Counted from the stretch's first letter, positions 7,183-20,000 are shown. The stretch is 20,000 bases of DNA from Euglena gracilis (GCA_039621445.1 CP154954.1:32378420-32398419); one strand, 5' to 3'. The notes: generated from the sequence alone by a model not told the origin. Numbers and translations are program-made.

Positions 7183-7902
7183 GGGTAAACCCCCCCCCCC
7201 ATTTAAACCGACCCGTCGGTTTAGGACTTTTGGGTTGGCGGAAATCCTGGAGGGGGTCGGTTTAGACGGGGGGTCGGTTTCAGGGGAGCACACGGCTGGC
7301 CACGGAAGCGGGTTGATGTTAGCAAGGCAATTTCAATTGGCAAATGCCCAATTTGGTCGGCCAATTCCTAAATTTGAGGGACAAATGCCTAATTTGGTCA
7401 GCCAATTCCTAAATTTGAGGGACAAATGCCCAATTTGGTCGGCCAATTCCTAAATTTGAGGGACAAATGCCTAATTTGGGATGCAAATGCTTAATTTTTG
7501 GGGGCAAATGCTGAATTTTGGGTGTAATATCCAATTTTTGGTGGCAAACTGCCTAATTTTGGGTGCAAACTTCAAATTTTAGATAGCAAATGCCAAATTT
7601 TGTAATTTTTTGGTTCCAACACCAAATTTTCGGAGGAAAATGCCCAATTTGAGGTGCAAACTCCAAAATTTGGAAGCAACTGCCTAATTTTGGGTGTAAA
7701 TCTCAATTTTGGGTCATCAAAACTATTCAATGAGCATGGACGCTCTTTCCGTTGGCGGCTTCCATTATGTTGTGCATGTTTGTCATCCAACTTGCCATGG
7801 GTCGGTTTATTTCTTTTTTTGGTTGAAATTCTGCAATGGGTCGGTTTGGAAGGGTAGGTCGGTTTAGAAGGGGAGTCGGTTTAAATGGGGGGGGGTTTAC
7901 CC
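7183..7902. mobile_element. MITE-like element with ~28-30-bp TIRs, subterminal GTCGGTTT motifs and an internal 21/42-bp tandem array
   Basis: GGGTAAAC(C)nATTTAAACCGAC at 7183-7212 and GTCGGTTTAAAT(G)nTTTACCC at 7875-7902, the latter followed by TA. GTCGGTTT recurs near both ends. Confidence 0.75.
7340..7712. repeat. Tandem array: 42-bp unit (GCCAATTCCTAAATTTGAGGGACAAATGCCYAATTTGGTCR) decaying into 21-bp degenerate units
   Basis: Three near-identical 42-mers at ~7360-7480, followed by CAAATGC..AATTTT.GG-like 21-mers. Confidence 0.85.
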
Positions 7903-9030: not shown

Positions 9031-9253
9031 TTCCCAATTCCCCTTTCCCAATTCCCAAAAGCCTTCGCTTTCGCCTTGGCGCACCTACTTGGGAACTGAA
9101 AATCAGAGTAACAGTAAAAACCCTTTTCCCACTTCCCAAGAAGCAAAGCACGGAGCAATGCGGGGAGGACGGACTGGAAATCCAAGTCCGGTCCAAGGAA
9201 AGGAAGGAAAAGGTATCAGAAGAATACCACCTGTGGAGAGAGAAGGGGCACCC

Positions 9254-9392
9254 ATTCTATCTAATAGGATTCTATCTAATAATAATTCTATCTAATAATC
9301 TAATAATAACACTAATTCTATCTAATAATTCTATCTAATAATACCCATTCTATCTAATAATCATTCTATCTAATAATATTCTATCTAATATC

Positions 9393-9429
<37 letters not shown>

Positions 9430-9455
9430 TCTATCTAATATTCTATCCTAATAGG
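9254..9455. repeat. AT-rich mini/microsatellite: (ATTCTATCTAATA)n with an embedded (TAA)n run
   Basis: Repeated TTCTATCTAATA units are directly visible; pure TAA run at ~9392-9428. Confidence 0.95.
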
Positions 9456-10051
9456 ATCTGCTTCCATCCTAACTTCCTCAACGGAAGGGGACAGAAGCAT
9501 ACGCCTGGTACACATCCCCCTCCCAGGGCTATGCCCGATTTCCCCTTTGGACCAGGCATTCTGGCCACAGGGATTTCGGACACAGACCTGGTCTGTGGGA
9601 GGTGCACCCTGGCGCATCCACAGGGGCCCTTTCCGTCGCACAGGGGTCCACTCCAAGGGGGGGGGGGGGCGGAAAGGAGGGGACCCAAAAAGCCTAAAAC
9701 GCGCAAAATGGTTTCACCTATTCTGCGGTGGCTTATGGGTATATAGTATATTATAGCCCACTGGGGAAAATGGGGCTGGCAGGTTTCCTTGCCAAGCAAA
9801 CCCATCCACCCAGTTTGGGTGTGCCCAAGGCACTTGGGGTTGGGTCCATGGGCATTCCAGGAAAACCCCTGGGGAGGGTGTGGAAGGAGGGGGCCTCTGA
9901 CCAGTCAAACCTGGGCAGGGCGCATGGCCAGTCAAACCTGACCACGCAAAAGGAAATCCTACTCTACAAAACCAACTGCCGGCGACAGCATTTGCCCCGG
10001 GGGGAAAAGTAGAGTGGAGTGGGGGGTTGGCTTAGGCCAGAAAAGTTGTGC

Positions 10052-10340
10052 TGTCTGGCAGCCTTAAGGCCTCAAACGGCCGAAAAGAAAAGAAAGGGAA
10101 AGGAAAAGAGGCCGTCGGCCCTGTGCGCTGCGTGTCGCACGCCCGCAAGAGGGGAGAGGGGAGAGGGGTGTGCATGCATGCGCACGGAATCCTGCACATG
10201 GCAGCATCCCGGTGGGAACTTACTAGCGGCGAATACCGCAAAGGGTCTTCGAAGGGGCTGTTCGGGCGAATACTCAAACAGGGTGTCAGGCGAATACCCG
10301 ACGAGGGTGCTGAAAGACGCCGCATTGGCGCTGACAGACA
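10052..10340 (-). repeat. 3' long terminal repeat (289 bp)
   Basis: On minus it starts TGTCTGTCAGC and ends GCTGCCAGACA: an 11-bp terminal inverted repeat with one mismatch and TG...CA ends. It follows a purine tract directly. The partner LTR is not in the window. Confidence 0.8.
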
Positions 10341-10354
10341 CCTCACCTGCCTTT
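10341..10354 (-). promoter_or_regulatory. Polypurine tract (plus-strand primer), AAAGGCAGGTGAGG
   Basis: 12 of 14 nt are purines and the tract abuts the LTR's TG. It contains the TGA stop of the last ORF. Confidence 0.7.
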
Positions 10355-12574
10355 ATCGGCTGGGCGTTCGCGCACCTCACGCCAGTAGTCGTGTTGGGGG
10401 TCCCCTAATGGGTCCTCAACCAACTCCAGTTGGCGTGGGGAACGCGGCGGAGCTGATTCACTCCGAATGGTGTTGAGCTCCGGATCGTTGACATCAAAGG
10501 AAGGGGTCTCCCAGTCCTTGATCCAATTATCCGGCAGCTTCTCCCTGGTACGTTCAGCATGATGCTGAAGATAACGTTGGAGTTGCTCCCAGAAAATTCT
10601 GGGCAGCATCACCGGCCAGATGATGTAATTCATCCGGGGGTGATTCGCAGGCACCTGCGGGGGCATCCCCGGGGTCTGCTTGAAGTTGATGTCATACATC
10701 CACCTCGCTGTCCGAGCTCTTGCGGTATGGGGCCGTAATACAGCCGCCAACCAACCTCTGAAGTCCACCAAATCGTGTTCTTCAGGAGGCCACAGTGGCA
10801 AGGCGTATCCGCCATGCTGACGCTTGGAGAACAGGGGGTAAACCTGTGTCTCCCAGTCGCCATCAGTCCAGAGGTAAGGCATTCTTACCTTGGCGTGTTC
10901 CTCGACGGCGAGGCGCATTGCCCCAGCGTCGATCTGGAACTCACGGGCCATTCCCGTGTGGCGGTAGCTTTCTACCTTTCGGAAGTCGGAGTGCTTCAGG
11001 CGGCCTTCCACCTGCTTGTACTCCTTCTTCCACTTCTCCAATGTCTCCCAGTGCTGGGGGACAATGGTGGCGACTGCTCCATCAGCAGTCTGCACGAACT
11101 TGCCTCCTATACAGTTGATGCACAAGGCAGGGATATCCCTGTCGTGAGCATTCTCACTGTAGGAGTAGTTCAAGCTGTGCTTCCAGGCATTCAGGCACTC
11201 GCCACATACGAGCGCCACACAGTTCGGCACATATGCCCTGTGGTGGAACCACGAGGATTGCACCTGCCGCTTGCACACATGCACAAGCGGTTGGTTGTGC
11301 CGCACATGGTGGCACACGGTGCACGTCCAGGCAAAGGACGTGCCGTGCTGGAAATCCAACACGCAGTCCTCGCCAAAGTACTGTGCCAGTACTCTGGGTG
11401 AGCGCCTGTTCCAGAATGTCCAGGTATGTTCCGGGACATAGTGGAAAGGTTCTCCGCGGACGAAGAGGGGCTGAATCCATCGATTCAGTGACCCTGTCTG
11501 GTGCCTAATAGCAGCCAGTTTCTTCGTCCTCTCTTCCACGGTACCTAGTCTGGTCAGGATATCCTGGGTCCAGAGCTGGGCATCCGCAGACACAGGAGGT
11601 GAAGCAGGTTCATCCTGCTCCTCATCCGTCGATCCGGCGGAAGACTGGGCCTGTCGACCACGAGCCTTACCTTTCGGTTTGCTCTGGCCGTACCCGGACG
11701 ATGCAACGGCCGAATAGTCGTGCATTGTCGTTTGGCCTTTCGGCTGTCCGCCAGTCTGACCTCCAGCGCCACCTTTCGGTGGTGGTTTCCCATCACCGCC
11801 TTTGGAAGGGGGCTTACAGGGTGCAGCACCCGGTTTGCCTCCTTTCGGCTTCGCACTCCCGGAATCAGGAGGCGACGCCTGCGGCTTACTCCTGGTATCA
11901 GGAGCCGATGGTGCCGGAGTAGACGTTTGCCGTCTGGGCGAAGCGGGCATACTGACCGCTGGGTCCCGCATGACGCTCCGAGGGGTTGGCACTCGTTCCT
12001 GGGGTTGTTCAGCCGGCCGTCGCCGAACAGGTTCATCCTGTCCGACGAAGCGTGGCACTGTGGTCGTCACCGGAATCGGTGCTTCCACAGGCGCTGGCGC
12101 TCCCAGAAACTCTGCCATTGTCCTCGGGACGGCAGGGACCCTGCGCGGTGTCGGTGGTCGTGGGGGTATCTCCTCCACTTCCATTTCGACATCTGGTCTA
12201 GGAGGTTGATCCTCCACAACCGCTGGCGCAGGTGCTACGGGAGGTTGATCCTCCGCTGTAGCGTGTGCGACAGATGGCTCTGTCGCCTGGGGTTCATCCC
12301 CTGATGGTGGTTGCACTGCTGCCGGAGATGGGGGTGCGGGGACACCAACATCTGGTGTCTCCACGACCTCGGCGGCGGAGCTTGATGCTACGCCTCCACC
12401 TCGTGGCGTTAGTGCAGCAGCCACGGCAGTAATGCCAGTGACCACGGCGCCGAGCACACGGCCTCCTAACGAGGTGCGTGCTGTGGGGCTGGCAGGATCT
12501 TCGAGGATATCCTCGACGACCATACCAGTCACCTCGGCTGGGGGCTCAGCCGTCGGGACAGGCGTTGCAGCCAC
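10343..12574 (-). CDS. Retrotransposon-borne orphan protein, C-terminal part (743 aa): long Pro/Ala-rich disordered region, RING-like Cys cluster, globular tail
   Basis: Long ORF ending inside the PPT. CTVC...HVC...CVALVCGEC...CINC at 11111-11323. Confidence 0.78.
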   Translation of the reverse strand: MAATPVPTAEPPAEVTGMVVEDILEDPASPTARTSLGGRVLGAVVTGITAVAAALTPRGGGVASSSAAEVVETPDVGVPAPPSPAAVQPPSGDEPQATEPSVAHATAEDQPPVAPAPAVVEDQPPRPDVEMEVEEIPPRPPTPRRVPAVPRTMAEFLGAPAPVEAPIPVTTTVPRFVGQDEPVRRRPAEQPQERVPTPRSVMRDPAVSMPASPRRQTSTPAPSAPDTRSKPQASPPDSGSAKPKGGKPGAAPCKPPSKGGDGKPPPKGGAGGQTGGQPKGQTTMHDYSAVASSGYGQSKPKGKARGRQAQSSAGSTDEEQDEPASPPVSADAQLWTQDILTRLGTVEERTKKLAAIRHQTGSLNRWIQPLFVRGEPFHYVPEHTWTFWNRRSPRVLAQYFGEDCVLDFQHGTSFAWTCTVCHHVRHNQPLVHVCKRQVQSSWFHHRAYVPNCVALVCGECLNAWKHSLNYSYSENAHDRDIPALCINCIGGKFVQTADGAVATIVPQHWETLEKWKKEYKQVEGRLKHSDFRKVESYRHTGMAREFQIDAGAMRLAVEEHAKVRMPYLWTDGDWETQVYPLFSKRQHGGYALPLWPPEEHDLVDFRGWLAAVLRPHTARARTARWMYDINFKQTPGMPPQVPANHPRMNYIIWPVMLPRIFWEQLQRYLQHHAERTREKLPDNWIKDWETPSFDVNDPELNTIRSESAPPRSPRQLELVEDPLGDPQHDYWREVRERPADKGR

Positions 12575-14142
12575 AGGTATATCCCCTGCAGGTGCTTCGT
12601 CTGGCCTAGGCTGTGCCAGAGTAGCACGTTCTCACCTACCTCCTCAGGTAGTTCCTGGTCTCCACCTACCGGTGGACAGACGGAAGCCGCCGCGGGAGCC
12701 GGGGAAACCGATCGTTCCCCTGCCGCTCGCGGGGCAGAGACGAAGGATACAGCCGTTCCTGTCGGAGACGGCGGCGTTGCCTCCAGTATGGTGACGGAGG
12801 GGCTGCGGTCGCGTTCCTCCCGCCGCGGAATCGCAGTGGTGGAAGCGACTGACGCCTCACGTCTCCTTCGCGCCAGAGGTTCATCCTCTGGGGCGATGAA
12901 GGCGCGCAGATCCTCGGGCGAACGAGGATCGTCGGGGTGCCATCGGCATCCCTGGGCATCCGCCAGCCTGTAAAAGGCCAGCGTACTGCTACTGGCGCTG
13001 TTGGGCCAGGGTGGCGGCCATGATGGCTGCACCCAGGCGTTGGCAGGCCTGTTCGGGCCCAGGAAGCCGCGGTAACGCGTGTCCTCCCAGACCTCGAAAA
13101 AGCCCTCCTCGAACTCCTGAACGCATGCCAGAATCGGCATACGCTGGTCGAGGATGGCCTTCGGGTGAGACATCAGCGGAAGGAATACCTCCCGGTCGAG
13201 GGTACCGCCAAACTGTCGCCGCAAATGTTCCTCCAGGCTGATATCAGCCAGGTGCCAGTTGGGGCGCAGGTGGCCGAGAATCCGACGACGAGGACCCTCG
13301 ATGGCGTCACCGTAATCCGGTGGCAGGCTTTCCATACCAGGCCTATCGTCCTGGGGGTCACGGAGATGTATATACACCTCCATGACATAGGTGGTCCAGG
13401 CTCGCCACCAGAACTGCTGCAGCATAAAAATACGCTGCTTGTGGACGCGGCGACTTTTGCCCTGGACATCCGGGGCGTCGCGGCACACATGCATAAGCAT
13501 GCGGCGTCCCATCTCCAGGCCCGGGTTATCCCGAGGCGGTGGAGGACTTCCGCGCACGCCGAATCCCCAGAAGTCGACAGGAAATTCCTGCCGGCAGTAC
13601 TTACAACAGAGGTCATACCTCTGCGGGTAAGCCAGGGAAACAGGCCTAACGCGGAAGGTGGAGCCGTAACGGCTCACCAGCCATACCTGAAGGTTGTTGC
13701 ACCACAACACCTCGATCAGGCGTTCGATGTCGGGGTGTAGTGGGTAGAATTCCCACTGCACGCCGAGGGGTCCGACTGTATGAATACAGTCGAAGACTGC
13801 CTTCAGCCTTCGGGCCAACACACGCTGGTCCCGAAAACCCAACTGGTGCAGGTAACTGCGACCAGTGGAATCGCTGAAGAGACCCCAGTTCTGGCAGGGG
13901 TATCCCAGCCAAAACCAGAGTTCCCAGAAACCCGGCTGGGCATCCAGCAAGGGTCTGCCACCTTCACCTTCGAAGGCGTACAGATCTATTCCGTAATGGA
14001 ATAGTCTGACTCGGTTCTCGGTGTGGCGTAATACCACATCGATGACTGCTTGTGGAGGAGTGACGGGGCGGTTTCCTGCAACATGGTAATCATGCTGCAT
14101 TCGCCAGCCTTCGTCCTCCAGCTCCTCCTTGAACCTGAGCAT
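12529..14142 (-). CDS. Retrotransposon-borne orphan protein, N-terminal part (537 aa; probably 5'-truncated and frameshift-linked to the next ORF)
   Basis: Long ORF with globular, W/F/Y-rich composition and a CKYC...MHVC possible C2HC finger. It ends in an A/P/S/E-rich tract. No family recognised. Confidence 0.75.
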   Translation of the reverse strand: MLRFKEELEDEGWRMQHDYHVAGNRPVTPPQAVIDVVLRHTENRVRLFHYGIDLYAFEGEGGRPLLDAQPGFWELWFWLGYPCQNWGLFSDSTGRSYLHQLGFRDQRVLARRLKAVFDCIHTVGPLGVQWEFYPLHPDIERLIEVLWCNNLQVWLVSRYGSTFRVRPVSLAYPQRYDLCCKYCRQEFPVDFWGFGVRGSPPPPRDNPGLEMGRRMLMHVCRDAPDVQGKSRRVHKQRIFMLQQFWWRAWTTYVMEVYIHLRDPQDDRPGMESLPPDYGDAIEGPRRRILGHLRPNWHLADISLEEHLRRQFGGTLDREVFLPLMSHPKAILDQRMPILACVQEFEEGFFEVWEDTRYRGFLGPNRPANAWVQPSWPPPWPNSASSSTLAFYRLADAQGCRWHPDDPRSPEDLRAFIAPEDEPLARRRREASVASTTAIPRREERDRSPSVTILEATPPSPTGTAVSFVSAPRAAGERSVSPAPAAASVCPPVGGDQELPEEVGENVLLWHSLGQTKHLQGIYLWLQRLSRRLSPQPR

Positions 14143-14146
14143 ATGC

Positions 14147-16552
14147 TCAAAGTCCGAGAGGATGATCCTCAGGAGTCCATTTCTTAATGGCCTCCATCTT
14201 ACTGGGTGTGGCTTTACGCTGCCCGTTGCTCAGGATGTGTCCGCAAAACTTAATAATCTTGCGAAACAGGTGCATTTTGGAACCCTTCACAAAAAGCACA
14301 TGCTTTTGGAACGCGGATAATACCGCGCGCACATCGCGATAATGCGGGTCGAGGATATCCTCGCCCGATTTCGCGGATGGCGGTTGGGTTCCCACCAGTA
14401 CATCATCGATGTACACCAGAGCAAACGGTAAATCGCGCAAAACCCACTGGATCATGCGTTGAAACATGGCTGGGCCATTCTTAACACCCATGGGGAGTAC
14501 CGTCCATTGGTACACACCCTTGGATGTCACGAATGCCGTGTACGGTTGCGAATCAGGATGCAAATGCATCTGATGGAAACCGTCTTCCAGATCAAAGATT
14601 GACCACAACCGGTTATCCGATTGTTTTGTGATCAAATCCTCGATCAGCGGTAACGGGAAGGGGTCATCCTTCGTTTGGGAGTTCAGGTACCGGTAATCCA
14701 GCACTAGTCTCCACTTCTTCTGACCAGACTGGTCAGCGGGTTTGGGCACCACAAAAGCTTGTGATGTCCACTCGCTCTTGGAAGGGATAATCCACTTCCG
14801 CTGGATGAGCTTCTCAATCATCTCGTTGAGAGCCTGTTCGCGTTCACCCGAACAACGGAAAAATTTCCGGTGCATGGGTTTAGCGCCATCCTTGAGCTCG
14901 ATTTTGCATACACCGAACGGACCGCGAATCGCGGGGTCGATGTCGCAGGCGTAAACTGGATTATCCAGTACACCATGAAATTCGCGAGTAATTCGCGAAC
15001 AATAGTCAGCAGACTTGGGGTGTTGGTCCGCACTCTCAATGACCGCAGAAATCTGCGTTGAGGGTGTGGCATCCCCATTGGTACCAAGGTATCTTGGCAC
15101 ACGCAAATCGGATATTCCGAATGCGTCAAAGAAACAAACGCGAAAAATGATTTCTTTAACAGGTGGTAATAATATACCACAAAAATCCTCAAATAGTGGT
15201 ACATCAGCGGGTAAATCCCACCAATGAAAACACACATGGGATAGTTGGTGAAACCAATCCGCATTCTGATTGACGGGTATGAGGAGAGCTCCTCGCGCTT
15301 CATCGCGGAGGATTTTCTCCACCACATCCGGGATAAGTTTTGGGGGAGGGTGCATCCATAGCACCGTATCACCCCAAAATTTTAGAAATGCGTTGGTATG
15401 TCGCGACCAATATCGCGACAAGCGCGCATGCGCTTTTGATGAAAACGCATCAATTTCCAATGACAAATCGAAGGAATCAGCCAAAACCGCGATTTTGGAG
15501 AACCATTCCTCCAAAATACGGTATTGACCAAAATTAAATGCATTCCATACACGCATCCCGTATGTGTCGACCTGCTTCGCGGGTTGAAGAGCGGTAACGC
15601 AATTCAAGGATCCGCAAACATAGGTCAAGGGTGTGTCATCCACACTCCCAAGGGGCATTCCCAAGGGTTGATGGGTTGGATGGGTACATACCCAGTCCAT
15701 ATCATGCCAGATGGAGGTGGGGGAGGTGTGTGACACGGATTTCGCGGTCCCAAACAACAAGGCAATACCTCGTTGTTGGAGCACTTGATGTACAGTCGCG
15801 CATTGCGATCCGCAACCAAGTGTATGGGTCCGCGAAATAGGGATTAGTGTTGGTGTTTGGACTAAACATCCACAATCGAAATCTGGCTGGGCGGAAATTC
15901 TCCTACAGTGCACACGTTGGAAGAAAGTGTCGGAGTAGTGGTCCTGGTCGCGCATGTTGGTCTGGTGGGGGTGTGTGTAAAAGTTGGGATGCGCTGTTGT
16001 AGCTGCTGGGGGGTGTACAGATGTATCTGAAAGCGATACATCTGGTGGAAAACGGGGTATTAGTGCAGCTGGGCGACTACTCGACACCGTAATTACTTCA
16101 GGCCTTTGGGCTTTCGTCTTGTAACCCAGTGGAACGAGGGGGGTACCGCTACTTGCTTGCCCTGCCTCGCGGGGAACGGAAGTTGGTGTGTCAACGGGCA
16201 GGGGGTGAACTTTCTCGGTACACCCGGTGTGGAAAACGTTGGTTGGTGTGGTTGGTAACGGGGTAAAAGTTTTCGAAAACGGTGTGGAAAAATTGGTGGC
16301 TATCGCGGTTGACGCCACAGGTGATGAGGGTTTGGGGGGCAATGAGGAGAATGGTGATGTGCGCAAACCGTGGGAGTGGCAATCCACTACCAGCCGGTGC
16401 TGACGTAAAAAGGGGTATCCCAGAATTACGTCAGAACCATGGATTCCGGATTCATATCCCCAGGTATCCGGAAAATTTTGCGGTTGGGGGGGGTGAGTGG
16501 TGCTTGGGGACGAGGGGTAGGACAATGTCCAAAAAGCATCCCAAGTCACCAC
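14147..16552 (-). CDS. pol: Pol polyprotein fragment: protease C-terminus, Pro/Thr and Cys/His-rich linker, MTase-like domain, reverse transcriptase; truncated before RNase H
   Basis: RT motifs WRLVLDYRYLN, PFPLPLIEDLI, IFDLEDGFHQM, TAFVT..GVYQWTVLPMGVKNGPAMFQR, YIDD (14402-14413) and KFCGHIL. The ORF stops shortly after EAIKKWTPE. Confidence 0.93.
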   Translation of the reverse strand: MVTWDAFWTLSYPSSPSTTHPPQPQNFPDTWGYESGIHGSDVILGYPFLRQHRLVVDCHSHGLRTSPFSSLPPKPSSPVASTAIATNFSTPFSKTFTPLPTTPTNVFHTGCTEKVHPLPVDTPTSVPREAGQASSGTPLVPLGYKTKAQRPEVITVSSSRPAALIPRFPPDVSLSDTSVHPPAATTAHPNFYTHPHQTNMRDQDHYSDTFFQRVHCRRISAQPDFDCGCLVQTPTLIPISRTHTLGCGSQCATVHQVLQQRGIALLFGTAKSVSHTSPTSIWHDMDWVCTHPTHQPLGMPLGSVDDTPLTYVCGSLNCVTALQPAKQVDTYGMRVWNAFNFGQYRILEEWFSKIAVLADSFDLSLEIDAFSSKAHARLSRYWSRHTNAFLKFWGDTVLWMHPPPKLIPDVVEKILRDEARGALLIPVNQNADWFHQLSHVCFHWWDLPADVPLFEDFCGILLPPVKEIIFRVCFFDAFGISDLRVPRYLGTNGDATPSTQISAVIESADQHPKSADYCSRITREFHGVLDNPVYACDIDPAIRGPFGVCKIELKDGAKPMHRKFFRCSGEREQALNEMIEKLIQRKWIIPSKSEWTSQAFVVPKPADQSGQKKWRLVLDYRYLNSQTKDDPFPLPLIEDLITKQSDNRLWSIFDLEDGFHQMHLHPDSQPYTAFVTSKGVYQWTVLPMGVKNGPAMFQRMIQWVLRDLPFALVYIDDVLVGTQPPSAKSGEDILDPHYRDVRAVLSAFQKHVLFVKGSKMHLFRKIIKFCGHILSNGQRKATPSKMEAIKKWTPEDHPLGL
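15115..15530 (-). other. Dam-like/DIRS-type DNA amino-methyltransferase-fold domain within Pol
   Basis: IDAFSSKAHARLSRYWS...NAFLKFWGDTVLWMHPPPKLIPDVVEKILRDEARGALLIPV....DWFHQL aligns by eye with the DIRS1 MT consensus D(L/A)FAS..N.....Y.S...DAF...W.....(N/F)PPF.LI..VL.KI......L..P.W....WF..L. Confidence 0.75.
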
Positions 16553-16817
16553 CGCACATGGGGGTGTTGTCAGCCGTCGTAATTTTGATCGGCTTCTTGG
16601 CTTTCACCAAGAGGGGGGTTGGTATCAACCCGAACCGAAAAAGTAGTGCAATGCGACAACCAGTGTCAATGAGAATTTTGACTTTTGTACAAAAATTTTG
16701 GATTTTGATTTCCGCTTGGACCAAAAGTTCCATGGGGGGTAAGCAAAGTGAAGGGTCTGGCGAAAATACGTTTTCTTGCCAGCTTTCCCATGAACCCTTT
16801 CCTACTTTGCACAACAT
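16390..16817 (-). CDS. pol: Retropepsin-like aspartic protease, split by a +1 frameshift at the G8 run 16486-16493
   Basis: KILIDTGC active site (DTG at 16659-16667) and flap-like IKITTADNTPM in ORF 16452-16817. The C-terminal DVILGYPFL motif (~16407-16432) is in the next frame. Confidence 0.85.
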
Positions 16818-16938
16818 TCCGAGCGGAAAGTTGGAGTGGGGGGTGGGGGACCCGAAAATTTTCCGGGTACCGACCAGAAAGGCAGATGGGCAGGGGGGGG
16901 GGGCAGGGTTGATTAGGTCCTACCTCCATCTGTTCATC

Positions 16939-16977
16939 AGCCCAGAGGTCCGTGCCCTCGGACCTCGGGCTCCCCTA
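16939..16977 (-). promoter_or_regulatory. Candidate gag-pol recoding signal: UAG-GGG followed by a 13-bp stem-loop
   Basis: Minus strand reads TAG GGG AGCCC GAGGTCCG agggca CGGACCTC t GGGCT, and the frame stays open after the TAG. Confidence 0.55.
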
Positions 16978-17590
16978 CTCCAGGTCCGAACCGGCCGAAT
17001 AGCCGGCTATGGGCCTTTTAGAGGTATAAACGGATTTCAACGTGCGCACCGCCATGCGGGCCTCGTCGAAATCGGTATCCGTGGTCTCATCCCCCTCCCT
17101 GCCCGAAGCCGGGGTGTCATCCTCCAAACAAGATATCTTGAAACCGACTTTATGGCGGTTGGAGGAGTGACCCTTGTCACCGCGATTCATACCGCGATGA
17201 CGTTGGCCAGGACGGGGAGGACGAGAACGCGGGCATTTGGATGAGTGGTGATCACTCGATCCACAAAGAGAAGACCGAGATTTGTGTCGCGATTCTAGGT
17301 AACGGGGGGATCGGTTTCCCGATTTCCCGTCAAACCGTCGTGGTGAGCGGGTATCCTGTCGACCATGACCGGTGTATCGGGGTTTTCGTGATGAGGATCG
17401 CGAAGAAGATGATCCGCTTCGCGAACGCGATCGCGATGTCTCGCGATGAGAATCACGCTTCTTGGCCGGGGCACCGGGTGACCTACCCCGAGGGGTACCG
17501 TGTTTCCGCTCATCGCGGAACGGGATCCGGGGGCTAATACCACCGGAACGGGGACGCGATGACCGTGAATTGCCCGATTGGTGTGATTGC
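16975..17590 (-). CDS. gag: Gag C-terminal continuation in the +1 frame: RS-rich tract, degenerate second knuckle, acidic tail ending in TAG
   Basis: Manual translation of the +1 frame gives QSHQSGNSRSSRPRS...ETSRSRSRSGSSSSRSSSRKPR...SSLCGSSDHHSSKCP...GSDLE*. It is open to 16975 and continues the S/R/G-rich sequence after knuckle 1. Confidence 0.7.
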
Positions 17591-19927
17591 GGAAGAACCC
17601 GAACCTCGTGATGAGGTCGAGCCTCGCGGACTCTGAATACGCTTTCGCGCTTCAGGATTAGGACATTCCCGAGACATATGTCCCGATTTGTTGCACAAAA
17701 AGCACACTTTATCCGTGGCGTGGTCCGAAGAACGCGGGTATCGCGTTTTCGATCCCCTGGTGGGTGAAGTGGGTGAAACCGGTGATTTTTGCAATGCGTT
17801 TACCGAACCAGCCAGTAATCCAGCGGTTGGGTGTGCGGTATACGCGGATTGAATCTGACCAAGAAGCTGTGATAGCTTCAATTGCTTGGAAACGTAGTTC
17901 CAGCGTTGGTCAAGAGTCATTGCATTACCCGCCAACTCCTCACGGTGGATATCCTTGATGAGGCTAGGCGTGAAATGCATGAGAACAGCGTCAAACTGTT
18001 CGCGCATTTGCTTTTCACTGAGTTCATCCACTTCAGCGGCAAGTCCCAACCATTTGGCATACCAAAGGTCAATGGACTTCCATTTGCGATCGGGTGGGGC
18101 GCATTGCCGCCACTTGGTCTCCAGGGTAATCCTAGCGACCAAACTTGAACTGGTGGAAGCGTATTGCTCCACCAGGTCATCAAAGGAAACGCGGTAGCGA
18201 ATGACGAGTTGTCGCGCGCGCTCCTTCTCATCCCTAGGGAGGCAATCGATGAATTCCATCTTGATCACCTCCGGGTTTGTGTCCTGGGTTGGCCCTTTCA
18301 ATGCCCAGTAGTACTCCCAGTCCCGGAAAAACTGTCTCCATGTGGTTGGATCACCATTCCACTGGGGTTTCACCTTATTCGCGATTGCGATGGTACCCTT
18401 GAAGTCTTTCTGAAAAACCCGTTGGCCCTCGGTGGTATTCCGTGGATTCGGGCCCGGGTACGCTCGAGCACCAAGCGTATCCTTTCCGGATTCTTGTCGG
18501 AATCGCGAAATTTCTGGTGAAGGTGAATCCTGGTACCGGAAATCCGGTCGCAAACCCTGTTGGTCACCCGTAATAGGGAGACTCTCCGGTGTGGGGGTAT
18601 GTCGCGCATGCAACATGTGACCCACTCCCGGTGTACGGGTTTGGCTCATTCCACGCACAAGCATGGAATGATGGATTTCTTGGTGGAGACTTGGCGGAAT
18701 CGCCGTGTTTTCCGCGAATTCGGTTCCCGTAATGGGAGATTCATCCGAAAACTGGGTTTGGGTTGTGGACAAGGCCAATGGTGGCACAATTCGCGGAATC
18801 GCGGATTGTGACACTCGGGACACGGGTGGTGGTGGTGCATGTGCACCCAGAGCCGGGTTATGAAAACGCGACTCTGGAACATTTGGCGCATCTTCGGCAA
18901 TGCATACTGCCGAATTGCGGTGTGAAACCCGCTGTTGGTTGGACACATTATCCAAACCCACAGACAAGTCATGCACACTTTGCTCCAAATGCTCAACGAG
19001 TTGGAGTTGGCCGCAAATACGGTCAACTTCATCCTCCAAAGCGCGAATACGCTTACGGTAACGGGAAAAGTCATCCAAGTGCGGAATCCTTTCGGAAATT
19101 CCGGTAACATCTTGGACAAGTTTCCCGTGAGACTTATCCAATAATTGGAGTTGTCCCATTAATGCTTTTACAGCATTTGAGAGAATCTGCAAAGGTGATG
19201 TCACCTTGGTTGGTGTGGTGGTGGGTGCAACCGGTGCAGGGTTATCCGACAACACGGTTGTGGTACCCATGGGCAAATTTCCAGGTTGTGGGTTATCCAA
19301 CAACGCGGAAATTTGCTCATCCAACCTGGTAATCTCACTTTGCGTGGATCGGGCATTCCGATTCACCGATTCCTCAAGCCGTAATAGGCTGTTGCAGAAA
19401 TCTTGCAAGGTTTCCTGATTGTTAGTGAGCATTTTGTCATAAAATGCCTTGAATTCAGGGTTCTCGGTCATCCGAGAACTGGAACCTGCAGGTAGAGACT
19501 GCATTTCCGTTACTTTGGTAGACACCGATGCATACCGGGTCTGGAGTTCCCCAATAGCAGTCTGAATGCCGCTAATGTCCGGAACTCGGTGGGAAAGTGC
19601 GGAACAGCTTTGTTGCAAACCCGCAATGGCCGAGTTAATCCCGCCAATGTCGGATTGCAACTGCAACTGCAGGGAATCCTGCCGTTGTGCCATTTCCGCG
19701 ACTTTCGCGCTCAGATTGGATAATCCAACCTGATTCGCGTCACAATAGCAGGTTTTCTGCTCCAAACGGGAAAGTCGCTCCTCCAACTGCCGCACATACG
19801 TGTGGGGAGAAAAATTCTCGTTGGCTTGTGACTGGAATTGCCGAAACTTTTCCGTTTCATCGCACAACTGCATAATGCGGTGTTGCGATTCATGGAAAGT
19901 TGCGGACAATGTGGTGAAATGGTCCAT
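17534..19927 (-). CDS. gag: Gag polyprotein (coiled-coil N-terminus, capsid-like domain, CCHC zinc knuckle)
   Basis: First ATG at 19927, with an in-frame TAA at 19988-19990 upstream. Heptad-rich N-terminus; capsid-like KPQWNGDPTTWRQFFRDWEYY...FIDCLP; CFLCNKSGHMSREC (CX2CX4HX4C) at 17663-17704. Confidence 0.9.
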   Translation of the reverse strand: MDHFTTLSATFHESQHRIMQLCDETEKFRQFQSQANENFSPHTYVRQLEERLSRLEQKTCYCDANQVGLSNLSAKVAEMAQRQDSLQLQLQSDIGGINSAIAGLQQSCSALSHRVPDISGIQTAIGELQTRYASVSTKVTEMQSLPAGSSSRMTENPEFKAFYDKMLTNNQETLQDFCNSLLRLEESVNRNARSTQSEITRLDEQISALLDNPQPGNLPMGTTTVLSDNPAPVAPTTTPTKVTSPLQILSNAVKALMGQLQLLDKSHGKLVQDVTGISERIPHLDDFSRYRKRIRALEDEVDRICGQLQLVEHLEQSVHDLSVGLDNVSNQQRVSHRNSAVCIAEDAPNVPESRFHNPALGAHAPPPPVSRVSQSAIPRIVPPLALSTTQTQFSDESPITGTEFAENTAIPPSLHQEIHHSMLVRGMSQTRTPGVGHMLHARHTPTPESLPITGDQQGLRPDFRYQDSPSPEISRFRQESGKDTLGARAYPGPNPRNTTEGQRVFQKDFKGTIAIANKVKPQWNGDPTTWRQFFRDWEYYWALKGPTQDTNPEVIKMEFIDCLPRDEKERARQLVIRYRVSFDDLVEQYASTSSSLVARITLETKWRQCAPPDRKWKSIDLWYAKWLGLAAEVDELSEKQMREQFDAVLMHFTPSLIKDIHREELAGNAMTLDQRWNYVSKQLKLSQLLGQIQSAYTAHPTAGLLAGSVNALQKSPVSPTSPTRGSKTRYPRSSDHATDKVCFLCNKSGHMSRECPNPEARKRIQSPRGSTSSRGSGSSAITPIGQFTVIASPFRWY

Positions 19928-20000
19928 AGACACAAATCCCCCACTGCTGGATGTTGCAGACGAGGAATCTCGTGCATGCAACTGTTGTTACAAATGCAAC

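Follow-up and report, generated by a model that had tools for sequence, protein, structure and literature searches.

What is the very long coding region at 10343-14142 of a 20,000-nucleotide (nt) stretch of the Euglena gracilis genome (GCA_039621445.1, CP154954.1:32378420-32398419; the whole stretch is called the window here), and does it belong to the Ty3/gypsy-type gag and pol sequences that precede it? A first-pass annotation had read it as a giant open reading frame (ORF) in the env position of a long terminal repeat (LTR) retrotransposon, interrupted by one missing base and ending inside the polypurine tract (PPT). We conclude instead that 10343-14142 probably represents the remains of one long protein gene carried on an abundant E. 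gracilis repeat, present here as a defective copy rather than as an ORF in an env slot. All relevant features lie on the minus strand, and positions follow the numbering of the whole window. The coding region itself consists of:

12529..14142, minus strand: ORF A, 537 amino acids (aa) from the ATG at 14142, or 566 aa from stop to stop beginning at 14229; its native sequence begins at 14162
10343..12631, minus strand: ORF B, 762 aa from stop to stop, or 743 aa from a GTG (10343..12574); the first ATG is at 12523
12624..12639, minus strand: frame break, with a TGA at 12632-12634

Both ORFs are far longer than chance would provide. When 10343-14229 was shuffled 500 times, the longest open frame reached 182 aa on average and 393 aa at most, compared with the 762 and 566 aa observed, so the description of two long same-strand ORFs (14142-12529 and 12631-10343) holds. 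ORF B is read in the frame of ORF A minus 1. An extra base near GGTGAGAACGT would join ...ELPEEVGE to ERATLAQPRPDE... and yield a fused product of about 503 + 762 = 1265 aa (the repaired length proposed earlier was about 1250 aa).

Base composition by codon position locates the change of frame. In the low-complexity linker that spans the break, guanine-plus-cytosine (GC) content at codon positions one, two and three (GC1, GC2 and GC3) is 0.74/0.65/0.59 upstream of the break in the frame of ORF A and 0.80/0.63/0.47 downstream in the frame of ORF B. The 100-nt zone in which the two ORFs overlap gives 0.85/0.67/0.42 in frame B and 0.67/0.42/0.85 in frame A. Only frame B keeps the linker pattern of GC1>GC2>GC3 in this zone; the coding frame therefore truly switches at about 12632, and ORFs A and B were once a single ORF. 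Reading of the sequence by hand confirms the TGA at 12632-12634 and the offset of one base between the frames, and the Ala/Pro/Glu-rich linker that was said to join two globular regions is likewise supported.

Copies of the locus are numerous. Twenty public sequencing runs contain the stretch, and we compared four of them (X1, X15, X16 and X17) with the window over 9460-20000; X1 is a DNA run, two runs are guessed to be RNA, and X17 is a metatranscriptome. In X1, 72,237 contig pieces fall on this interval and cover 30 of 30 bins, the summed depth not being a copy number, and the whole stretch, including ORFs A and B, is therefore a high-copy repeat. The two guessed-RNA runs and the metatranscriptome likewise cover 30 of 30 bins, which is weak evidence of transcription. 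A protein predicted from an E. gracilis transcript (P0011, EG_transcript_25142, EukProt) is identical to ORF B at 228 of 230 positions (residues 303-532; 11036-11725) and bears the majority alleles K379 and T521. It was the one match to ORF B residues 330-762 in a word-index search of proteins of 30-418 aa (1085 candidates from a 5.8-billion collection); the same search among proteins of 419-1334 aa returned none (3462 candidates). Together with a second transcript protein, P0004, described below, this match by itself would assign the window to E. gracilis or a near relative. Neither of the two E. gracilis transcript identifiers recovered in this work occurs in the five supplementary files of PMC6366073.

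The differences among copies bear the mark of coding constraint. Other copies depart from the window at 742 listed differences, of which we considered the 40 with the best support; these 40 fall in the 3' flank (12), ORF B (19), pol (5) and gag (4), with none in ORF A. Within ORF B, 14 of the 19 listed variants lie at codon position 3 and 13 are synonymous (0.29 expected under the observed substitution spectrum; p=4e-4); the globular C-terminal part of ORF B, domain B below, accounts for 15 of these variants, 11 of them synonymous (p=2e-4). The corresponding counts are 5 of 5 in pol and 3 of 4 in gag. Gap counts, taken among 32 listed records, follow the architecture of the protein. Records confined to its globular parts (X15 records 10 and 12, X16 record 18, X17 records 26 and 28) have no gap letters in coding sequence at 1.5-7% divergence, and the two gap letters of X16 record 17 would be explained by the single-base deletions that X16 carries in the 3' flank at 9740 and 10005. 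Records that overlap the linker contain 10 (X15 record 11), 25 (X16 record 19) and 15 (X17 record 27) gap letters, and every listed record with at least 10 overlaps the linker. The synonymous excess, together with the gap-free globular records, argues that ORF B was a protein-coding gene under purifying selection while the family spread. Selection among copies is thus borne out for ORF B only. An apparent boundary at 9557 and a loose end at 13932 seem to reflect paralogous sequence of greater divergence rather than ends of the element, and we made no use of them.

The sequence at the frame break is uncommon among these copies. X1 depth is 11,823 at 12623 and 25,070 at 12627, compared with about 820,000 in adjacent bins (1.4-3%). 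Three X1 contigs have a loose end at 12624, and one contig of the X17 metatranscriptome carries an additional G and an additional A at the break. The two records that cross the break, one from X16 and one from X17, exceed the window in length by 25 and 13 letters, each of which is +1 modulo 3. Given the rarity of the window sequence here, we suggest that the frame break is a lesion private to this copy or to a small subfamily.

ORF A has few relatives. A full HMMER search of 1.84 billion representative sequences returned nine matches at E<=1e-3, three of them at E<=1e-10. Seven of the nine are short fragments with 44-87% identity; among the five fragments that were looked up (all except P0006 and P0007), four derive from run assemblies and one from EukProt. 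P0004, an E. gracilis transcript protein, is 44% identical to part of ORF A. In P0002 and P0010, the sequence shared with ORF A is preceded by a Lys/Gly/Glu-rich N-terminus whose last residues, ...EPAEV, come directly ahead of LSDFEQML. The remaining two matches, P0005 (332 aa, E 1.6e-6) and P0009 (470 aa, E 3.6e-4), come from environmental assemblies and are full, distantly related proteins; they are 31% identical to each other over 240 aa (E 2e-37). The alignment has invariant P, Q, C, C, F, W, G, R and C columns in a core of about 240 aa, with the signature YPQxYxCxCxxC......DFWGxxxR ... HxC. Six of the nine matches were scanned against Pfam and belong to no family there; P0005 weakly matches the zinc ribbons of Lar, a phage primase and GpA (E 0.04-0.19). 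These alignments indicate that ORF A is a member of a small unnamed family with a conserved CxxC...HxC (CCHC-type) zinc ribbon. Single-protein scans found no relatives of ORF A or domain B in metagenome contigs, none of P0009 or P0005 in viral contigs and none of P0009 in prokaryote genome contigs, and a word-index search of ORF A against proteins of 295-940 aa gave no match among 8000 candidates scored.

The following parts can be distinguished in the protein:

13450..14004, minus strand: domain A, the conserved core of ORF A (about 185-240 aa), with columns invariant with P0005, P0009, P0003 and P0008
13483-13605, minus strand: predicted zinc ribbon (C209, C212 ... H247, C249) inside YPQxYxCxCxxC......DFWGxxxR
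11597..12912, minus strand: Pro/Ala/Glu-rich low-complexity linker of about 440 aa, which crosses the frame break
near ORF B residues 258-325, minus strand: Lys/Gly/Pro-rich basic patch in the linker
12401-12469, minus strand: hydrophobic Gly/Ala/Val/Thr-rich segment in the linker (LGGRVLGAVVTGITAVAAALTPR; ORF B residues 55-77)
10412..11596, minus strand: domain B, globular and C-terminal, about 395 aa, with a Cys/His cluster at 11111-11365

The gene thus appears to encode domain A, a disordered Pro/Ala-rich linker and the Cys/His-rich domain B, that is, two predicted zinc-binding globular parts separated by low-complexity sequence. ORFs A and B are not paralogous: the best BLASTP match between ORF A and ORF B (E 0.31) lies in low complexity, and hhalign assigns the pair a probability of 0.04. 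Within the linker, other copies (X1 and the fragment P0006) read ...DILYAAL before PTLAQPRPDE at 12624 on the minus strand in the frame of ORF B, by hand translation. This DILYAAL resembles an EDIL motif 35 residues downstream, and the linker may contain a variable tandem duplication.

The first-pass annotation had judged the protein not to be Env-like and free of integrase and chromodomain motifs, and neither Pfam nor the Protein Data Bank (PDB) gave us reason to differ. Neither ORF A nor ORF B matches any family in Pfam (E<=0.1), PHROGs or NCBIfam, and sequence and profile searches of the PDB found nothing for ORF A or domain B. The further statement that signal peptide and transmembrane helix are both lacking needs amendment. 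The N-terminus of ORF A indeed has no hydrophobic stretch (Kyte-Doolittle maximum 0.79) comparable to segment 12401-12469; that segment was overlooked. It averages 1.6 over 19 residues on the Kyte-Doolittle scale, which is borderline, and lies in the middle of the linker. In composition it is reminiscent of viral fusion peptides, and no other Env feature is present. A search for Env features thus yields no Pfam match and this single borderline stretch by Kyte-Doolittle.

Structure prediction, which had been proposed for both globular regions, could be carried out and led to no known fold. The AlphaFold model of ORF A, built from nine sequences, is mostly helical with a mean predicted local distance difference test score (pLDDT) of 51.3 and 72 of 445 residues at or above 70; that of domain B, from a single sequence, has a pLDDT of 33.1. 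Fold searches with these low-confidence models returned a best Foldseek E of 1.7 against the PDB, and a wide VIA-align search gave generic helical proteins at Z values up to 5.5, with no chain reaching 8. Poor models and empty fold searches of this kind are uninformative, and they are no evidence of a new fold. The predicted zinc sites and the basic linker tentatively suggest a zinc-dependent nucleic-acid- or chromatin-binding accessory protein, which might serve the repeat as a host-interaction or targeting factor; we think this possible rather than probable. The anti-silencing or chromatin role proposed earlier was purely inferential.

We turn to the sequence on either side of the coding region; upstream of it the remains of a retroelement can be recognised:

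17534..19987, minus strand: gag-like ORF, with its reading frame open at the window end and a CCHC zinc knuckle at 17663-17704 (zf-CCHC, E 2.1e-5)
16656..16673, minus strand: retropepsin-like LIDTGC active-site motif, in a frame that differs from the remaining pol; an ILGYPFL motif lies at 16406-16426
14147..16603, minus strand: pol ORF, with a Dam-like domain and a Ty3-type reverse transcriptase (RT); it terminates ...KKWTPEDHPLGL* where the thumb begins
15245-15484, minus strand: Dam-like adenine methyltransferase domain in pol, motif WMHPPP at 15341-15358 (PF05869, E 6.7e-5)
14231-14746, minus strand: Ty3-type RT in pol, YIDD at 14402-14413 (RVT_1, E 4.1e-27)
14162..14167, minus strand: RT/ORF A breakpoint, where contigs of X15, X16 and X17 diverge
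9460..10342, minus strand: non-coding 3' flank, multi-copy like the remaining stretch; an LTR and a PPT are both undemonstrated here

The RT finds its best PDB sequence matches in Ty3 RT (4ol8_A, E 4.7e-38; 7q5b_A, E 3.8e-37). It aligns to residues 54-271 of the 478-residue RT/RNase H chain 4ol8_A, so that thumb and RNase H are missing. Scans of the five long ORFs (Pfam E<=0.1) and of 86 among the 138 frames with at least 75 aa (E<=0.01) revealed no RNase H, integrase (rve) or recombinase; the other 52 frames, which share sequence with gag or the long ORFs, lay outside these scans. Phage_integrase, the tyrosine recombinase of DIRS-like elements, matched none of the ORFs scanned. The window contains no long direct repeat or second LTR, and the 5' end of the element lies beyond it.

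Other copies locate the point at which pol was interrupted. Contigs of X15, X16 and X17 that approach from the RT side depart from the window at 14167, and their consensus continues, by hand translation, ...WTPE and then VIKTLTHLKG, which reads as a normal Ty3-type thumb. Contigs that approach from ORF A depart at 14162; those of X16 and X17 run on for at least 255 letters and X15 record 12 for 246 letters. In the frame of ORF A this second continuation reads ...REEEEEPAEV by hand translation, in agreement with the N-terminal extension of P0002 and P0010. Both sides of 14162-14167 thus continue differently in three runs. The interval 14162-14167 is therefore a breakpoint at which a truncated pol meets an N-terminally truncated ORF A, and this copy is a defective deletion or chimeric derivative. 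Composition changes at the same place: GC3 is 0.52-0.53 in gag and pol and 0.68 in both globular domains of ORFs A and B, with a jump at the junction.

The carrier is damaged elsewhere as well. Compared with the window, other copies have an additional GT at 16492 and an additional AA at 17585, and they lack 4 nt at 16893. Because of these indels, and because LIDTGC lies in a frame other than that of the downstream pol, the gag-protease region of this copy bears several frame lesions. The Dam-like domain, located upstream of the RT, scores 23.1 bits, below the 28.1-bit gathering score of PF05869, and reads V-L-W-M-H-P-P-P, i.e. HPP rather than NPP; it may be inactive in this copy. A 274-aa open frame at 16978-17799 on the minus strand overlaps the end of gag, is very Arg/Ser-rich (RSRSRSGSSSSRSSSR...) and has no Pfam match; it may be an out-of-frame reading of the gag-protease region. 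Gag residues 108-165 (19492-19666, minus strand) match the baculovirus P10 family (E 6.6e-7, 30.2 bits, cut-off 29.8 bits), a match that most likely reflects a coiled-coil heptad region, not homology. Past the 3' flank of the element, 7300-7700 and 9250-9460 on the plus strand hold a tandem array of units of about 41 nt (CAAATGCC.AATTTGG...) and a simple repeat of the TAATAATTCTATC type.

How might these parts have come together? In the reading that we favour, the repeat carried a single gene whose product would have been at least 1265 aa, and longer in native copies. Two kinds of damage would account for its present state. The one-base frame break at about 12632 would have split the gene into ORF A and ORF B. 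In addition, the gene would have lost its first codons, where at 14162-14167 it was joined to a Dam-carrying Ty3/gypsy-type pol whose RT is cut at the thumb. Full-length relatives may carry the gene as an accessory ORF that follows integrase, in which case the present copy would have lost the segment from the RT thumb to the start of the ORF, by internal deletion or template switching; this combination of accessory position and internal loss we consider about evenly balanced. As for its affiliation, the gene is about as likely to be cargo of the Dam-Ty3 family as to belong to another repeat.

Several observations weigh against this account. No listed contig spans 14162-14167 as the window does, so that the junction might exist at this locus alone or might result from mis-assembly. 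The GC3 gap between gag/pol and ORFs A and B fits an origin outside the LTR family. P0005 and P0009, the distant relatives of ORF A, are short stand-alone proteins on contigs of 2.0-2.5 kb without an RT, which fits such an origin as well. DNA-level constraint has been shown for ORF B only, as no listed variant falls in ORF A, and the 40 variants are the best-supported subset of 742. Many copies are visibly decayed, the frameshifted fragment P0007 being an example. At the frame break, the length arithmetic of the bridging contigs is only suggestive and indeed ambiguous: X15 record 11 ends before the TGA and is nevertheless 10 letters longer, and an X17 copy is +2 at the break and -1 at 13167. 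Finally, the poor models and empty fold searches lend nothing to a functional assignment.

The alternative that best survives these data is that ORFs A and B come from a different repeat, or from a multi-copy host gene family, and that 14162-14167 is a chimeric join. Such a join could arise by nested insertion followed by deletion, by template switching between co-packaged RNAs or by mis-assembly in a repeat-rich region. The difference in GC3 (0.68 versus 0.52-0.53) fits this origin, as do the divergent continuations of both junction sides in three runs with no listed contig to bridge them, and the presence of domain A in short stand-alone proteins. In the available text of the report on the 2.37-Gb E. 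gracilis genome, where the majority of repeats have a poor classification, unclassified repeats make up 32.7%, which also speaks for this origin, and LTR elements 21.8% (PMC11252322). However, gag-pol and ORFs A and B share a strand and abut directly, with similar multi-copy cover across 9460-20000 in X1, and the join falls inside coding sequence on both sides rather than at an LTR edge, so that internal deletion of one element fits at least as well. We regard an origin in a different repeat or host gene family as possible but distinctly less than probable.

Could the locus be what the first-pass annotation described, a natural accessory ORF in the env position of an essentially intact LTR retrotransposon, bounded by a PPT and marred by a one-base lesion only? 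The coding sequence is constrained, it lies downstream of gag-pol on the same strand, and the break resembles a single-base lesion. For this copy the proposal is nonetheless contradicted: the RT breaks off where its thumb begins, the frames scanned hold no RNase H or integrase, the native N-terminus of ORF A is missing and the protease is split between frames. The stop of ORF B had been placed inside the PPT, and this had been taken to show that the ORF belongs to the element; neither step is supported. The tract at 10343 has 14 purines in 17 positions and no run longer than 5, 425 of the 19984 17-mers on the strand are equally purine-rich, and the window has no second LTR that would mark an LTR edge. 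An intact element with an ORF in the env position is thus highly improbable here.

Little more can be said for the proposal that domain B is a highly divergent integrase and ORFs A and B the continuation of pol. ORF B and the RT ORF share a frame, and by eye the Cys/His cluster contains H-x3-H-x30-C-x2-C, with D-x57-D-x35-E (LWTDGD ... WMYDINF ... IFWEQL) downstream. However, neither rve nor the integrase zinc domain matches domain B at E<=10, whether the whole domain or two sub-segments are searched, and there is no PDB sequence match at E<=1. About 111 aa separate CxxC from the first Asp, patterns of this type are expected by chance in a stretch rich in Cys/His and Asp/Glu, and the true continuation of the RT is seen in other runs. 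We rejected the integrase assignment, to which we give very little credence.

Equally doubtful is the idea that the two ORFs are merged by recoding or splicing, through a programmed -1 frameshift or a very short intron. Their frames do differ by -1, and removing a 29-nt GT...AG interval (12639-12611) fuses ORF A to ORF B exactly. Against this, hand reading of the 100-nt overlap found no X XXY YYZ slippery heptamer, and the one RNA-library contig that spans 12611-12639 (X17 record 27) keeps the interval unspliced. An interval of 29 nt is shorter than usual spliceosomal introns. The low representation of the window sequence at the break among copies, given above, points to a private lesion.

Least credible of all is the view of ORF A as a degenerate C5 cytosine methyltransferase resembling the module of Euglena 'EpiLTR' elements, some of which are reported to carry a DNA methyltransferase (DNMT) (10.64898/2026.05.21.726589, in the available text): a language-model look-alike search ranks DNA_methylase clusters first (score 0.89, 137 shared features, a lead only) and DLYAFEGEGG and GYPCQ can be picked out by eye, but PF00145 matches neither the whole ORF (E<=0.1) nor residues 24-276 (E<=10), the PDB yields no match, P0005 and P0009 read GYTGAN and GYTAHN where motifs I (FxGxG) and IV (PCQ) would have to be conserved, and the mostly helical model, too poor to exclude a Rossmann-type fold, matches no methyltransferase.

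How does the remnant of one long repeat-borne gene, which remains our preferred reading, compare with known systems? Gypsy and Athila carry additional env-like ORFs downstream of pol. Like these, ORFs A and B are long, lie on the same strand and stand 3' of pol in an LTR-type element; unlike them, they show no signal peptide by Kyte-Doolittle hydropathy and no Pfam match, have a single borderline hydrophobic segment and do not follow an integrase in this copy. Among protein families, the nearest look-alike clusters of P0009 are DUF6698/DUF6532 of Basidiomycota (score 0.94, 155 shared features, 14 of 30 matches). The recognition value of 1499 falls below the 2300 mark and the shared features below 170, which makes this a lead only; it was dropped for want of a hidden Markov model (HMM) match, as DUF6698 (PF20414) matched neither P0009 nor P0005 at E<=1, nor ORF A at E<=0.1.

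A closer comparison is offered by the Dam-LTR or 'EpiLTR' elements of a recent preprint (10.64898/2026.05.21.726589), the one relevant source that we found in the literature on such an ORF. As its available text describes them, these elements also occur in E. gracilis and, like the window, whose Dam-like match falls below the gathering score, combine a Ty3-like RT with a Dam-like domain in pol; the lineage is prone to chimeric and nested elements and gains extra modules. Those modules are DNMTs and chromodomains, whereas ORFs A and B show neither, and the near-invariant Asn-Pro-Pro followed by an aromatic residue in their Dam motif is replaced by HPP in the window copy. The main text of the preprint makes no mention of an accessory ORF of unknown function, and its supplementary architecture figures may bear on the matter. 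Retrotransposon-captured DNA methyltransferases, in the available text of PMC5890265, likewise evoke large cargo with a host-interaction role, but they are recognisable DNMTs.

The locus, a broken copy, is by itself no proof that such an ORF occupies an env slot; it is of use in directing attention to a family. It adds to a setting in which Dam-carrying retroelements of E. gracilis have recently been described, in the available text of that preprint, as collectors of epigenetic modules (10.64898/2026.05.21.726589). One could also envision, although we think it improbable, that the protein formed by domain A, linker and domain B is no cargo but serves the mobility of a class of Euglena repeat as yet undescribed, one of the unclassified repeats reported for about a third of the genome; its two zinc domains would then provide a new DNA-binding or DNA-cutting activity. 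If so, its fusion to fragments of a Dam-Ty3 pol would represent modular exchange between unrelated mobile elements. The protein of ORFs A and B is a candidate either for a further host-interaction factor encoded by such elements or for the central protein of a repeat still unclassified, and domain A, which is also found in environmental stand-alone proteins, would define a small new protein family.

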